A stretch of DNA of 60,981 nt, from assembly GCA_041653675.1 (NCBI GenBank), contig JBAZEY010000007.1, positions 1 through 60,981 of the forward strand, written 5' to 3'. Positions 12,656 through 54,971 of the stretch are shown piece after piece. The position numbers were made by a program, and so were the translations under genes. This DNA comes from Patescibacteria group bacterium (GTDB lineage Bacteria; Patescibacteriota; Patescibacteriia; XYB2-FULL-38-15). The notes under the pieces were generated by a model, which saw only the letters and a program-made list of their open reading frames with translations, made no database searches and was not told the origin of the DNA. The first letter of the stretch is position 1; each line of letters opens with the position of its first letter.

Positions 12656-13354
12656 TTACTCAACCACTATCGTCCCCACAATTCTGTCCACCACCCCATC
12701 CAAATCAAATGTCTCCCGCTCAGCCGCGCACTCGCTCTGTTTTGGATCATCATAATTCAAACATTGCGGATAGCGCAAAACGAAATTTAAGGAAATTAAT
12801 TTTCCGTCTCGCGCCGTAGTATATGTATATGTTGTGTAAGTGCTGCCTGCCGCGCCTTCGCTTAAAGCCGCAACACAATAAACTCTGTCGTCCACCATTC
12901 TCCGCGCCACTCTCGCCGGAAAACTGCTCTCTGCCGGAGTTTCCGCGCAAGAAAATTCTCCCTCGGCAATTGTGACCGTCGGCGGCCACTCAGCAACACT
13001 AATATATTTTGCCGTCAAAGTTTCCGGATATTGAAATTCAAAGCCATTGCCACTCGAAATTTTCCAGCCGGGAGATAAAGGACAAGGAGAAAATTCGCAA
13101 TTCGGCGGCACCCGGCCAACAGAACTTCCGTCCGGACAAATTTTGGCTTCGAGTGTACAGGCCACCGGCTCGGGACAAGGCGCGAATTCGCAACTCGGCG
13201 CGACTCTTGAAACATAACTTCCGTCAAAACAAAGTTTGGCGTCAGCCGTACAAAAAACCGGCTCGGGAGTTTTCTCTCCAAAAGCTTGCCAAAGGAAAAG
13301 CCCGCCCGCTGCCAAAATTAAAACTACAATAAGCGCGACTAAAATTTTGTTCAT
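12656..13354 (-). CDS. secreted protein with two tandem Cys-motif repeats
   Basis: Signal peptide. CTADAKLCFDGSYVSRVAPSCEFAPCP followed by CTLEAKICPDGSSVGRVPPNCEFSPCP. Confidence 0.6.
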   Translation of the reverse strand: MNKILVALIVVLILAAGGLFLWQAFGEKTPEPVFCTADAKLCFDGSYVSRVAPSCEFAPCPEPVACTLEAKICPDGSSVGRVPPNCEFSPCPLSPGWKISSGNGFEFQYPETLTAKYISVAEWPPTVTIAEGEFSCAETPAESSFPARVARRMVDDRVYCVAALSEGAAGSTYTTYTYTTARDGKLISLNFVLRYPQCLNYDDPKQSECAAERETFDLDGVVDRIVGTIVVE

Positions 13355-13640
13355 ATCCCGTTAGAAGCCCTTGACGAAAAAAAATTTTAAGCGATTGGTG
13401 AGATAACGTTTTCCCATTCCAGACTTAAGATATCTTTCTCGCACACGAGCATCTTCTCTATTTAAACTTATTTCACAATAAATTAATTTCCATGGAGCCC
13501 CGAATTTAGTAGCTATGTTTTTTCTCGCATTATGGCTTGAAATTCTTTTTCTCAAATCGCAAGTTGAACCTGTATACCATTTCCCTGTTTTATCGCTTCT
13601 AAGAAGATAGACAAACCACATAGGCTTCTAACGGGACATA
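13355..13640 (-). mobile_element. inverted-repeat-bracketed GIY-YIG cassette
   Basis: Perfect 14-bp inverted repeat: TCCCGTTAGAAGCC (13356-13369) and GGCTTCTAACGGGA (13623-13636), extendable to ~17 bp. It encloses the GIY-YIG ORF exactly. Confidence 0.55.
13361..13621 (-). CDS. GIY-YIG nuclease family protein (86 aa)
   Basis: MWFVYLL..GKWYTGSTCDLRKRISSHN gives the GIY / YxG / R..H..N motif order. Confidence 0.8.
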   Translation of the reverse strand: MWFVYLLRSDKTGKWYTGSTCDLRKRISSHNARKNIATKFGAPWKLIYCEISLNREDARVRERYLKSGMGKRYLTNRLKFFFVKGF

Positions 13641-13678
13641 CGTATTTCAATTATCAATTTCTATTTACTAATTATTAA

Positions 13679-24030: not shown

Positions 24031-25605
24031 TTAATTCCCCGTTCTCATGGGCAGCGCCGGTTCTGTAAGCGGTTTGCTTTCCAAAATCGCCGGAGGAGTA
24101 ATTGTATTGTTTGCTTCCGCGGCGTCCAAAATTTCTTTCACCAGCGGAATTACCACCACTTCTTTATTGTAATATTCATCCGCCTGGCCTTTATCAATTA
24201 CCGGGAAAACAAGAGCCGGAACGAGAAGATCGTCATTTTCCGTATCCGCGTATTTAAAATATCTCATATACTGAATTTCCGGCGTGCCGAGCTTTACTTC
24301 CACTTCTTTCACTTCAAAATTTTCCACCGGATAATCTCCCTGGGGCCAGAGGTCTCCTTGCAAGGCAAACTTCATCACCCGCTCCTTATTCGTTTCCATG
24401 GCGTAATTTGAACTTTGATAATTTTGCGTTTGAAGGCCATAGAGGCTCGTCACTTTCATGGTCCTGATATTTATATTCACGGAAAATCCCACCTGGCTGT
24501 AGCCGCCCTGCTCCCAAGCTTCTTTCCCGTTTACAAGCAAGGGGTACAAAACCGTCATCGTGTCGGGAATCCAAACATCCGCGGCTGGAACATTTATATA
24601 TCCCAGTTTAGAACTCTGGCTAACTTTTGGCGCGCCATAATTTCCCCGGTCAATTCCGTAGCGGGTCATAAAATTATTGGCTGCCTCAATTAATTTCTCA
24701 TCAGAGGGCACATCAGACTGGCTCAAACGCGGCAAAGAGCCATAATCTACCGGCATAGTTCTCTGCCAATTTTCATACATGGAAACCATTCCTTCGTAAG
24801 GATTAAAATCAACAAGATATCCGCCGTCCCGATCTTCGGCGAGCGAGAGGGTTTGAACTTTAACATTGCTCAATTTGCTAGGATCAAAAAGTCCAAAACT
24901 AATTTTGTCCAAAACTGAATTTAAATTTTCGCTGCCATAGCTTTTTAGCCGTTTCAAAACCGCGACTTCGCTTGCCTCGGGCAGAGAAAAATCTTCGCCG
25001 ACATAGACATAGCTATATTTTGTCGCGTATTGCGGCGGCATCATTTTTATGTCCGGCACAGAGGCGTTCGTTCCTCCGCCTCCGCCCAATCCCAAAGCCG
25101 GACGGGAAGTAGAAGACGGAGCTTGCGGCGAGGCAATCGGCGCGGTGACACCCAAAGAACTATCCGATTCAGCACCGACTAAACCTTGGCTTGAACCTCC
25201 AAGATCACCAAACGCCCGCTCGCCGGTTTCTTCCACTCTCACTCCCTTAGAAAAATTCGCCAAAGGATTTCCCGCTCCGAATTCTGGCATACTAATCCAA
25301 CCGTTTTGCACGGCCGGCACGACAATAATTACCGCCAGGACAATCGTCGCGGCCGCTAAAGATAATCCCCGCCAGAAAACCAAATTTTTCCAAAGCGACG
25401 GCCGAGCACTTCCCGCTTTTTCTAATTCCTCGGCCCGCGCGAGCAATTTCATTTTCAATTCTTGCCGAAAATTTTCATCAAATTTATCCTGGGGTTTATT
25501 GGCAATCATTTTAGCCATAGTGGCCTCCAATTCTTTTTGATATTTTTTTAAACCCGGATCAATGATAAAGAGTTCGTTTAAAATTTCTTGGATTATTTTT
25601 TCCAT
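24031..25605 (-). CDS. putative anti-sigma factor / membrane-anchored extracytoplasmic protein
   Basis: Downstream of the ECF sigma gene. ~90-aa cytoplasmic N-terminus, a single TM (LSLAAATIVLAVIIVVPAV) and a large extracellular domain. Confidence 0.45.
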   Translation of the reverse strand: MEKIIQEILNELFIIDPGLKKYQKELEATMAKMIANKPQDKFDENFRQELKMKLLARAEELEKAGSARPSLWKNLVFWRGLSLAAATIVLAVIIVVPAVQNGWISMPEFGAGNPLANFSKGVRVEETGERAFGDLGGSSQGLVGAESDSSLGVTAPIASPQAPSSTSRPALGLGGGGGTNASVPDIKMMPPQYATKYSYVYVGEDFSLPEASEVAVLKRLKSYGSENLNSVLDKISFGLFDPSKLSNVKVQTLSLAEDRDGGYLVDFNPYEGMVSMYENWQRTMPVDYGSLPRLSQSDVPSDEKLIEAANNFMTRYGIDRGNYGAPKVSQSSKLGYINVPAADVWIPDTMTVLYPLLVNGKEAWEQGGYSQVGFSVNINIRTMKVTSLYGLQTQNYQSSNYAMETNKERVMKFALQGDLWPQGDYPVENFEVKEVEVKLGTPEIQYMRYFKYADTENDDLLVPALVFPVIDKGQADEYYNKEVVVIPLVKEILDAAEANNTITPPAILESKPLTEPALPMRTGN

Positions 25606-25737
25606 ACCCCGTTAGAAGTCTGTTTTCCTCGGAAAACTTAATCCGAGTGGCAAACTTCTTTTTTTTAATAAACCCCGTTCCCGTCAAGAGAAAAATTTTA
25701 AAGAAAATTTTTCGTCAAGGACTTCTAACGGGGCATA
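25604..25737 (+). mobile_element. 134-bp ORF-less (MITE-like) derivative of the GIY-YIG cassette
   Basis: Inverted repeat ATACCCCGTTAGAAGTC / GACTTCTAACGGGGCAT. The inner right end TTTTTCGTCAAGGACTTCTAA encodes ..FFVKDF*, matching ..FFFVKGF* of the 13361 gene. Confidence 0.5.
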
Positions 25738-25749
25738 CATTTTTTAAGA

Positions 25750-26316
25750 TTAAAGATTTAAAAGTATAAAAAGTAAAAACGCGGCTGCTCCCATTTCCGC
25801 CCGGAGCTTCCCTATCTCGCGGGAAAAAATCATTTTACAATTTGCTTCGGAAAGTCCGGCGATTTCGGAAATTTCCCGATAAGACATTTCTCCCCAAAGC
25901 CGCATCATGATAATTTCCCGATGCGCCGGGGAAAATTTCGTTAAATATTTTTTTACCTCATTCAATTTTTCTCGCGCGTCTAAATCAACTTCTAAATTTT
26001 CCGAAGCGGCCAAATCCCAAACATCTTCAATGTTTTCACTCGGCCGGGCGGCTCGATAATGATCAATCACTGCGTGGCGGGCAATGCCATAAAGCCAGGC
26101 GGAAAAACTCCCGCGGCTAATTTTGTATCCGCTGATATTTTCCAAAACTTTCATAAAAATATCAGAGACTAAGTCTTCAGCCGTTTCTTTATGATAAGTT
26201 TTGTAATAAACGAAGCTGTATATTTTTTTTACATACGCCTCGTAAAGCGCGCCAAAACCCTCAAAGTTTCCGGCTTGGCAGGCTATGATAATTTGTTTTT
26301 CTTGGATTGAATCCAT
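25750..26316 (-). CDS. ECF-type RNA polymerase sigma-70 family factor
   Basis: Region 2 (ETAEDLVSDIFMKV..; SAWLYGIARHAVIDHYR) and region 4 (MSYREISEIAGLSEANCKM). Confidence 0.85.
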   Translation of the reverse strand: MDSIQEKQIIIACQAGNFEGFGALYEAYVKKIYSFVYYKTYHKETAEDLVSDIFMKVLENISGYKISRGSFSAWLYGIARHAVIDHYRAARPSENIEDVWDLAASENLEVDLDAREKLNEVKKYLTKFSPAHREIIMMRLWGEMSYREISEIAGLSEANCKMIFSREIGKLRAEMGAAAFLLFILLNL

Positions 26317-31117: not shown

Positions 31118-31208
31118 GTTAATATATTGTACCCCATATTACATAAATAACAACACGAAAGTCAATGGATAATAAAAAACCGCCTCATCGGCGGAAATTT
31201 TTTGCAAA

Positions 31209-31279
31209 TGGACCGTGGGAGAATCGAACTCCCGCCTTCCGGATGCAAACCGGATGCACTACCACTATGCTAACGGCCC
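31209..31279 (-). tRNA. tRNA-Ala (anticodon UGC), no encoded CCA
   Basis: Hand fold: acceptor GGGCCGT/ACGGTCC with the G3:U70 identity pair, anticodon loop TTTGCAT, T loop TTCGATT. Confidence 0.9.
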
Positions 31280-31313
31280 AAGTTATAAATTATGATATAA
31301 TGATTTAACGCTT

Positions 31314-37682: not shown

Positions 37683-37697
37683 TCGCGTTAAACTTTT

Positions 37698-37769
37698 GCT
37701 CCCATAGCTCAACGGATAGAGCGCAAGCCTCCGAAGCTTGAAATAGAGGTTCAATTCCTCTTGGGAGCA
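37698..37769 (+). tRNA. tRNA-Arg (anticodon CCG), no encoded CCA
   Basis: Hand fold: acceptor GCTCCCA/TGGGAGC, anticodon stem CAAGC/GCTTG with loop CTCCGAA, T arm AGAGG-TTCAATT-CCTCT. Confidence 0.85.
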
Positions 37770-37864
37770 TTGGCCTGCCGCGATTTTTTGTTTACTTGAC
37801 GATTTGTCGAAATTTTTGTTAAATAGGGATGGTCGCTTGGATCAAGGGGGGAAGGAGGACAGGA

Positions 37865-48142: not shown

Positions 48143-48174
48143 ATATTAGATAATAAAAGTGATGCCCTAAAATT

Positions 48175-48612
48175 TACCCGAGTAACTATAAGCCGGATTC
48201 TGTGCCCGTCCGACTTTTGGCCGGAGGGCGGTAACCATCTATCTAGATCCGCGATTGCTCGCGGACTCAAGCGGCTGTTTTTGGCCTTGCACCGGATAGG
48301 TGTTTTCCACGGCGCCTGTCACCAGGCTGTCCCGCGTGAGCTCTTACCTCACGATTTCAACCTTACCTCCGCCTTTCGGCGGATCGGCGGTGTATTTTCT
48401 GTTGCACTGTCCGTGGGCTTCATTAATTGATGTTCGATTAAGCTCTATCCGCCGCGTAAACGGCAAATATAGCACAAACAACAAAACTTACTCCCCGTCG
48501 CTGTTAGCGACTATCTCTCTTTCGGCTTTATGCCGAAACGGTGTCCGGACTTTCCTCTCTCTTTTCCCCGATTTTAAACGGAAAAAGGAGAGCGATTACC
48601 CATTACTCGGAT
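48175..48612 (-). ncRNA. rnpB: RNase P RNA (bacterial type A-like)
   Basis: The minus strand contains GAGGAAAGTCCGG (CR-I) and ACAGAATCCGGCTTAT (CR-V). P1 pairing is CCGAGTAA / TTACTCGG at the two ends. GC-rich island. Confidence 0.9.
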
Positions 48613-54835: not shown

Positions 54836-54884
54836 AAAATAAGTTTATAAAGTTTAAGGTTTATAAAATTTTAAAATTCTTTAA

Positions 54885-54967
54885 TGCCCAGGGGGAGAGT
54901 CGAACTCCCATGAGCTTGCGCCCACAGCGTTCTGAACGCTGCGTGTATACCATTTCACCACCTGGGC
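54885..54967 (-). tRNA. tRNA-Leu (anticodon CAG), type II with a long variable arm
   Basis: Hand fold: acceptor GCCCAGG/CCTGGGC, anticodon stem CAGCG/CGCTG with loop TTCAGAA, variable arm TGGGC-GCAA-GCTCA, T arm GGGAG-TTCGACT-CTCCC. Confidence 0.9.
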
Positions 54968-54971
54968 AAGA

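Follow-up and report, generated by a model that had tools for sequence, protein, structure and literature searches.

A 281-bp GIY-YIG element of Patescibacteria, possibly the smallest transposon to mobilise itself and one with a new type of enzyme

The element described here lies in a 60,981-nucleotide stretch of a Patescibacteria genome (contig JBAZEY010000007.1, hereafter the window), where it occupies positions 13356-13636 and is referred to as unit 1. Its 281 bp consist of terminal inverted repeats (TIRs) and a single open reading frame (ORF) for a GIY-YIG nuclease, and 4-bp direct repeats flank it on both sides (Table 1). As claimed in the original prediction, which was made from the sequence without database searches, the 86-aa ORF (13361-13621) is bracketed by a perfect 14-nt inverted repeat with the arms TCCCGTTAGAAGCC (13356-13369) and GGCTTCTAACGGGA (13623-13636), which in extended form measures 17 nt at 94%. 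The ATG of the nuclease (13619-13621) is found 1 nt from the right arm and its TAA stop (13361-13363) inside the left arm, with the final codons GGC TTC TAA falling within the 3' TIR. A further extension of the repeat by AT(A/G) with one mismatch had also been described, but these bases belong to a 4-bp direct duplication, TATG (13637-13640 and 13352-13355), which is itself nearly palindromic. The ATG of the downstream gene (13352-13354), which had been said to abut the left arm, stands 1 nt outside the arm (13356-13369). Read in the orientation of the element, the window copy and its close homologs, the latter reached via the protein, have the order TATG-YCCCGTTAGAAGCC-T-ATG(ORF)GGCTTCTAA-CGGGR-TATG(host gene), and in the window copy a three-codon mini-ORF opened by the upstream ATG ends 6 nt ahead of the nuclease ATG.

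Table 1 Features of the two units in the window (TIR, terminal inverted repeat; MITE, miniature inverted-repeat transposable element; ECF, extracytoplasmic function).
Feature	Position	Strand	Remarks
Host gene of unit 1, 232-aa secreted or membrane-anchored hypothetical protein	12656..13354	-	Start codon is the insertion target
Unit 1, downstream TATG duplication copy	13352..13355	-	Its ATG (13352-13354) is the host gene start codon
Unit 1, 3' TIR, GGCTTCTAACGGGA on minus	13356..13369	-	Read from sequence
Unit 1, 86-aa GIY-YIG nuclease ORF, Slx1/UPF0213-like clade	13361..13621	-	Pfam PF01541, dN/dS, AlphaFold2/Foldseek, profile matches
Unit 1, 5' TIR in element orientation, TCCCGTTAGAAGCC on minus	13623..13636	-	Read from sequence; positions 1-13 96-100% complementary across 81 distinct elements
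Unit 1, three-codon mini-ORF ATG TCC CGT TAG	13628..13639	-	Captured host ATG reading into the TIR; read from sequence
Unit 1, upstream target-site duplication copy (TATG on minus)	13637..13640	-	Host start codon copy captured by the element; one TATG only at the empty L099/L100 site
Unit 2, duplication copy, CATA on plus, TATG on minus	25603..25606	-	Holds start codon 25603-25605 of the 524-aa gene 24031-25605
Unit 2, MITE-like non-coding derivative, 127 bp, 14-bp TIRs CCCCGTTAGAAGTC / GACTTCTAACGGGG	25607..25733	+	Keeps the 3' end of the GIY-YIG ORF on the plus strand
Unit 2, second duplication copy	25734..25737	-	12 nt beyond the stop codon of the ECF-type sigma factor gene (25750-26316)

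The shorter second copy with the same termini that had been noticed in the window is likewise present, with the arms CCCCGTTAGAAGTC (25607-25620) and GACTTCTAACGGGG (25720-25733), and is referred to as unit 2. The 11-mer arm core CCCGTTAGAAG occurs exactly four times in the 61-kb window, only at the four arms of units 1 and 2, while 0.71 chance matches would be expected for an 11-mer with one mismatch allowed. Unit 2 is non-coding and contains a remnant of the nuclease gene, KFFVKDF*, with a 25-nt match at 96% to the nuclease 3' end plus arm on the opposite strand. It is therefore a deletion derivative, inverted with respect to the neighbouring host genes. Being short and non-coding, with TIRs and a duplication like those of its coding parent, unit 2 can be classified as a MITE, as can 12 other short units; unit 1 is coding and hence is not one. 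The 4-bp duplication, the inverted orientation of unit 2 and the relation to start codons described below go beyond the original prediction.

Orthologs of the host genes of both window units were traced in relatives, where occupied and empty loci could be compared. For unit 2, the site is empty in L091, L092 and L093, which come from three samples and carry an ortholog of the 524-aa gene that is 97% identical. Here, a single TATG follows the sigma factor gene (...CTTAAAAAATG TATG GAAAAAATAATCC), where the window has matching flanks around TATG-127 bp-TATG. For unit 1, the site is empty in L099, on the same contig as L091, and in L100, both reading ...GATAATTGAAATACG TATG TATAAA ahead of the ortholog of the 232-aa gene, where the window has TATG, the 281-bp unit and a second TATG; the orthologs in L099 and L101 use the same ATG start without the element. 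Both empty sites are thus exact and scar-free, contain one copy of the tetranucleotide and differ from the window by the element and one TATG only. A comparison of syntenic loci for empty sites had been proposed as a check, and such sites were found for both units. Insertion duplicates 4 bp of the target, and the element is mobile: its TIRs are accompanied by a 4-bp duplication, both window copies have empty counterparts in a related strain, and scores of other copies occupy unrelated host sites. The earlier suggestion of an unrecognised mobile cassette is borne out by the same three observations. In the more distant L094 (76% identical ortholog), the short unit 2 is present at the same site, yet L095 and L096 (73%) are empty, and scarless loss or repeated gain therefore has to be assumed.

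A scan of one genome per species yielded 80 further loci, mostly in Patescibacteria of many lineages. Both arms could be located in 72 of these, with a unit length of typically 274-285 bp, and a perfect 4-bp duplication is found directly outside the arms at 44 of these 72 loci from other species (chance 1/256 each), with a match of three of the four bases in 7 more. A further 13 short units (37-131 bp) bounded by the same arms lie in the flanks of the survey loci, all but one with a perfect 4-bp duplication; apart from unit 2, the interiors of short units are unrelated to one another. In 460 kb of sequence, comprising the flanks of known copies plus the window, TIR pairs fall into size classes of 37-53, 100-140 and 260-330 bp. 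The TIR consensus is N-CCCGTTAGA-NNN, 13-14 bp long, and the two ends are complementary to each other at positions 1-13 in 96-100% of 81 distinct elements. Positions 2-10 (CCCGTTAGA) are nearly invariant, and positions 1, 11, 12 and 13 are variable but co-vary, being complementary in 96-99% of the elements versus 45-60% expected. Complementarity itself therefore seems to be maintained. The arms flank essentially every homolog examined, the nuclease ORF overlaps both TIRs in every copy examined, and the gene is found without repeats only at truncated or degraded loci. The feature belongs to a large family of tiny TIR elements that is common in the ultra-small Patescibacteria, also known as the candidate phyla radiation (CPR). 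A 20-mer of the window subfamily was found in metagenomes at one locus only, the same gyrB site as in L009 (L106), with no new sites, and an exact look-up of the window's own nuclease sequence returned no match.

Several loci of the survey display compound arrangements. In L019 (263-520), two non-coding units stand head to tail with one CTTG duplication in common, and in L029 (2345-2510) a non-coding unit is placed at the ATG of the nuclease ORF of another element (duplication TGTG). A 29-bp TIR-T-TIR palindrome lies within the 3' end of an element in L033 (2750-2800). In L090 (2480-3449), a solitary right end flanked by the same TTTA is found ~700 bp downstream of a complete element and pairs over 16 nt with its left end, and could be a one-ended remnant or a composite arrangement. 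Longer units of 299-312 bp occur in bins labelled as non-CPR bacteria (L053 2459-2770, L057 1582-1880 and L071 2056-2366, as well as L052 and L054). These keep the CCCGTTAGAG arms and have no 4-bp duplication, and their shared flanks are conserved, with GACATC(G/C) to the left and GTNCGCACCGTNCAGGA to the right; such units may lie in a larger conserved repeat or form a different sub-type.

The perfect duplications of the 72 loci are mostly TGAA (23) and TATG (10). With four short derivatives added, the TGAA sites number 27, and all but one of these have an A directly in front of them in the empty target; the target is therefore ATGAA. In the TATG class, the subfamily of the window copy, the downstream duplicate holds the host ATG. 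In the TGAA class, the commoner subfamily, the host start is rebuilt from the last base of the TIR (A or G) and the duplicated TG, giving ATG if the terminal pair is T..A and GTG if it is C..G. Start codons at the junction open ORFs with Pfam domains beginning at residues 1-10, including CTP synthase, DnaJ, phosphoglycerate kinase, a MurC-type ligase, CofD, an epimerase and a cytidylyltransferase, and gyrB (the host gene in L009 and L106) and TsaD also begin at the junction, the domain match of TsaD beginning further in. Housekeeping genes such as gyrB, pyrG, dnaJ, pgk, murC and tsaD are thus occupied. As background, only ~9% of TATG and ~7% of ATGAA sites in the window are the start of an ORF of at least 100 codons, and the bias towards start codons is therefore extreme: surviving copies sit overwhelmingly on host start codons. 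In L031 (2373-2500), a unit is inserted at TATG inside the nuclease ORF of another element, which argues that the tetranucleotide, and not the start codon as such, is recognised. On this reading, selection in very compact genomes removes harmful insertions.

The two classes also differ in how the captured ATG reads into the element. In the TGAA class it is in frame with the nuclease ORF in 18 of 23 copies, giving ORFs of 91-95 codons in 16 of these, and the fusion reads ATG AAY CCC GTT AGA, that is MNPVR... Database proteins starting with MNPVR, MSPVR and MDPVK match the targets TGAA, TGAG and TGGA, the second codon being partly host-derived. In every copy of the TATG class, including that of the window, the captured ATG instead opens ATG YCC CGT TAG, which ends 6 nt before the nuclease ATG. 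At the other end, 6 nt separate the nuclease stop from the host ATG in this class, and in the TGAA class the two overlap as ATGA.

Signals other than start codons are restored in the same manner. At TTGA duplications, the downstream copy reads TTGAC (right flanks of L034, L038, L060, L012 and L026), and in L034 and L038 a TATAGT- or TAGTAT-like hexamer follows ~16-18 nt later, which suggests insertion into a putative -35 promoter box that the duplication restores. Four tRNA genes draw their first 4-5 nt from a TIR end, GGGG or GGGC, plus the duplication (L045 2759-2829, L055 838-908, L051 2356-2426 and L085 3031-3103); insertion into the 5' end of the tRNA therefore regenerated the gene. Across these sites, the duplication and the TIR end together rebuild the signal that the insertion disrupted.

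The nuclease ORF of the window matches the Pfam GIY-YIG family PF01541 over residues 1-68 (E = 4.4e-14, 53 bits against a cut-off of 22.6) and no other Pfam family. Across 32 homologs of 66-87% identity, mean column identity is 73%, and Y5, Y16, R26, H30, E62 and N76, which in view of I-TevI and UvrC are taken to be the catalytic residues, are invariant. The ratio of nonsynonymous to synonymous substitution rates (dN/dS) is 0.07-0.17 between copies at different host loci, and the ORF is under purifying selection with a dN/dS of about 0.1. The AlphaFold2 model (pLDDT, the predicted local distance difference test score, 86.5) displays the GIY-YIG fold followed by two C-terminal helices, with strands at residues 2-9, 15-20 and 44-52 and helices at 23-31, 55-66 and 68-81. 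Profile matches were obtained to 1zg2 (UPF0213 protein BH0048, E = 2.5e-7), Slx1 (4xlg, E = 3.9e-4) and 1ywl (9.8e-3), and Foldseek ranked UPF0213 and Slx1 structures 1-9, 1zg2 being among the best, with I-TevI at rank 10. The nearest solved relatives by both sequence and fold are thus UPF0213 and Slx1, ahead of I-TevI and UvrC. No auxiliary domain is present: the whole nuclease is 86 aa long and the C-terminal DNA-binding module of the homing-enzyme type is absent. A profile search of 1.84 billion cluster representatives returned 2965 clusters at 50% identity with E <= 1e-10. An origin from phages was rejected, as just four distant relatives (40-47% identity) were found on viral contigs. The setting of a group I intron or rRNA insertion was rejected too, with none detected by Rfam in the window and the NCBIfam intron-endonuclease model TIGR01453 scoring 26.6 bits, below its cut-off of 56.05.

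The explanation we favour, and consider fairly probable, is a minimal DNA transposon of a new kind, which its own GIY-YIG nuclease would mobilise. In its full form, to which we give somewhat better than even chances, the 86-aa Slx1-like nuclease would be the sole enzyme of an unrecognised class of prokaryotic DNA transposons and, at ~280 bp, the element would be the smallest autonomous mobile element known. The enzyme would make staggered hydrolytic cuts at paired 13-bp ends and leave joining to the host, and the element would capture and regenerate start codons, thereby spreading harmlessly through the essential genes of the smallest bacterial genomes. We infer with moderate confidence that the nuclease is the element's own enzyme, because it is the only gene always travelling with the ends, overlaps these ends and is strongly constrained. 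Relatives of the nuclease are structure-specific, which fits ends of conserved pairing, and the nuclease would probably recognise paired or symmetric ends. With low confidence only, we infer that cuts staggered by 4 nt are made at the junctions between element and flank as well as at the target and are joined by host ligase or repair. Such cutting and joining could account for scarless excision and the empty sites, for head-to-tail copies with one duplication (L019, L045 and L040) and for the tendency of copies in the same genome to share a tetranucleotide or its complement, and the nuclease would mobilise the non-coding derivatives (37-131 bp) in trans. For expression, the upstream duplicate would pass the promoter, ribosome-binding region and ATG of the host gene to the element, and the nuclease would be translated as an in-frame fusion from the captured ATG or, in the window copy, via the three-codon mini-ORF. 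As judged from the spacing of the reading frames, host translation would be coupled to this, continuing by termination-reinitiation after the nuclease stop. In this way the element could exploit the expression signals of a gene and leave the gene itself intact.

Several points weigh against the nuclease-driven transposon. No GIY-YIG nuclease is known to us to work as a transposase. Those that have been characterised act by hydrolysing DNA, with short 3' overhangs as the product, which alone yields no 4-bp duplication, and at 86 aa the protein lacks a separate DNA-binding domain. The combination of TIRs and a 4-bp duplication classically marks DDE transposases, and the sequence preference of conventional strand transfer would also explain tandem copies and the sharing of tetranucleotides. 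The bias towards start codons could stem wholly from selection, other insertions being lethal, and not from targeting; the unit in L031 went into a TATG inside an ORF. With regard to translational coupling, the window copy has no clear Shine-Dalgarno sequence. At the window locus, unit 1 is found in the more distant relative L001 and not in closer ones, and the element there may be long-lived and seldom mobile. A stem predicted in the RNA could also affect expression: folding of the minus strand of window positions 13340-13650 gives a 19-bp stem closing between the arms (minimum free energy -82.8 kcal/mol, z = -4.6). This TIR-TIR stem is predicted to bury the start of the mini-ORF and part of the host start region.

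The main rival is a non-autonomous TIR element, that is a MITE with a passenger gene, moved in trans by a conventional transposase, e.g., of the DDE type, encoded elsewhere, with the GIY-YIG protein as cargo or with an addiction or repair function. We regard this as rather unlikely, though it is the alternative to be taken most seriously. The combination of TIRs and a 4-bp duplication is typical of DDE-type insertion sequence (IS) families and GIY-YIG chemistry is hydrolytic, and mobility extends to the short non-coding units that share the ends, so that the ends suffice in cis. Yet a larger partner IS was looked for in the 460 kb around known copies and in the window, and no unit of IS size bounded by a pair of these ends turned up there, the longer TIR pairings all being cross-pairs of separate small elements. 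A Y1 transposase gene of the IS200/IS605 type near one locus (L116) could be taken as a candidate source, but Y1 transposases do not produce TIRs with duplications. Also against this rival, the ORF overlaps both TIRs in every examined copy, at a unit length of ~274-285 bp across dozens of species and many lineages, is under strong purifying selection and is the only coding capacity that always accompanies the ends.

The remaining alternatives are less probable still. The original prediction had also considered a homing endonuclease targeting a palindromic hairpin, in which TIR-TIR units would spread by other means and the gene would invade them by cutting the centre of the palindrome and copying from a filled unit. 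Minimal TIR-loop-TIR units of 37-53 bp and the 29-bp palindrome in L033 would offer such targets, and GIY-YIG restriction enzymes can recognise palindromes as oligomers (PMC2241918). This route appears very improbable, as unit 2 retains the nuclease 3' end and hence looks like a deletion product, not a virgin target (a point that rests on one case), the interiors of the other short units are mutually unrelated and host sites are diverse. The arms give 13-14 bp of homology, too little for recombination-dependent homing, and a transposition mechanism would still be needed for the palindromes, which also have duplications. Likewise very improbable, in our view, is an immobile, domesticated feature in which the repeats form a long-range RNA stem for processing or translational control and the nuclease has a host function such as repair. 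The predicted arm-arm stem, the strong conservation of the protein and the persistence of insertions in fairly divergent relatives (unit 1 at the same place in L001-L008, unit 2 in L094) would fit, and domestication may apply to some copies. The family as a whole is not explained by it, given that closely related strains differ in carrying the element at both window sites, that the host sites are many and unrelated and that non-coding and nested copies exist. Short palindromes are common in intergenic DNA, but nothing else speaks for a chance palindrome or terminator-like hairpin beside an ordinary gene, whose probability we put close to nil: it is already refuted by the duplications and empty sites, the same arms recur at the second locus and around almost every homolog examined, relatives without repeats are only truncated or degraded, and no terminator-like site is predicted at the locus. 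Other identities tried for the arms were a tRNA or anticodon-loop fragment, rejected as the flanking bases are unpaired and ARAGORN and Rfam found nothing there, and a promoter, rejected as the promoter-like matches were weak only.

Compared with known systems, the element works like bacterial IS and MITEs, such as IS5- and IS1182-type elements with 4-bp duplications and Correia, RUP and ERIC-like repeats. It shares with them the TIRs, a duplication of fixed length, empty and filled sites, short non-coding derivatives with the same ends and nested or tandem copies. However, its only gene encodes an 86-aa GIY-YIG nuclease and not a DDE, DEDD, HUH, serine or tyrosine transposase, so that of the features defining an IS in the ISfinder sense the TIRs and duplication are present and a recognised transposase class is absent. 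In addition, its ORF overlaps both TIRs and its design places it on a start codon. To our knowledge, the ~280-bp unit is less than half the length of the smallest IS. The GIY-YIG homing genes I-TevI and the Seg genes of T4 are alike in placing a GIY-YIG catalytic domain in a mobile, selfish gene, which at times stands free between genes of the host. They differ in having large C-terminal DNA-binding domains, where the element protein is a bare catalytic domain, and in homing to one cognate allele via double-strand-break repair without TIRs or duplication, where the element has both and occupies dozens of unrelated host genes. The misfit to the intron- or intein-borne GIY-YIG pattern and to an IS with a transposase, from which the original prediction started, has therefore held up.

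Slx1 and UPF0213 proteins (YhbQ, BH0048) are the closest by profile and fold and are likewise minimal stand-alone domains, but they are regarded as cellular repair or recombination factors, and Slx1 needs Slx4. No report of flanking repeats or mobility of these proteins was found in the literature searched; prokaryotic Slx1-like proteins have been treated as minimal stand-alone domains, with inverted repeats not mentioned (PMC1564403). The REP/RAYT systems (REPtrons, built on repetitive extragenic palindromic sequences) and IS200/IS605 elements also combine a tiny single-domain nuclease gene, flanked by inverted palindromic repeats, with dispersed non-coding repeat copies, and their dependence on DNA secondary structure is a possible parallel. 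Here, however, RAYT and TnpA are HUH Y1 enzymes, no target-site duplication or true TIRs are involved and RAYT genes are usually single-copy, in contrast to the GIY-YIG enzyme and the duplication of the element. Rickettsia palindromic elements are similarly small palindromic selfish DNA tolerated in a compact genome with gene function left intact, yet they are non-coding and inserted in frame within ORFs, while the element has its own enzyme and captures and regenerates the start codon. Penelope-like retroelements use a GIY-YIG endonuclease for integration and generate short duplications (PMC8557442), but are eukaryotic reverse-transcriptase elements of several kb, whereas the element has no reverse transcriptase. 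In CPR rRNA genes, GIY-YIG ORFs have been reported in non-intron insertions that are not homing-like (PMC11270868), and GIY-YIG genes are among those that Patescibacteria are predicted to have donated to other bacteria (PMC12455944). A full-text search of the literature, of which the searchable part is incomplete, returned no description of such an element, and we place it, with its putative autonomy, outside the known kinds.

Should the nuclease mobilise its own ends, the few known transposase types would be joined by a new catalytic class, the lower size limit of autonomous mobile elements would be redefined, and the large family of uncharacterised bacterial stand-alone Slx1/UPF0213-like GIY-YIG proteins, about 3000 clusters at 50% identity, would receive a function. 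Even without autonomy, capturing and restoring start codons is a distinct strategy of selfish DNA for extremely compact genomes. For annotation, gene callers will misplace the starts of host genes beside these units, a change from ATG to GTG being one signature, the fused N-termini (MNPVR...) are partly host-derived, and in comparisons of CPR genomes such units will pass for "horizontally transferred GIY-YIG genes". With its 280 bp and a target of 4 bp, the element could also serve as a compact tool for insertion or tagging.

One copy, P0052, is found on many contigs (L107-L116) as an identical 93-aa version from many groundwater samples. It occupies the same place each time, between small overlapping genes (65 aa and 94 aa) adjoining HicAB or ParE toxin-antitoxin genes, and hence represents one locus in different samples, which is uninformative on recent spread to several sites. 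In L116, the IS200/IS605-type Y1 transposase gene is located ~1 kb from this copy. In the window, the host gene of unit 1 contains a 93-nt tandem duplication (73% identity, 13080-13265) encoding two Cys-rich protein repeats. In keeping with a Patescibacteria-like genome of 42.6% G+C, the rest of the window includes ordinary chromosomal content such as a class A RNase P RNA (48173-48611) and four tRNA genes (2708-2784, 31208-31280, 37697-37770 and 54884-54968).

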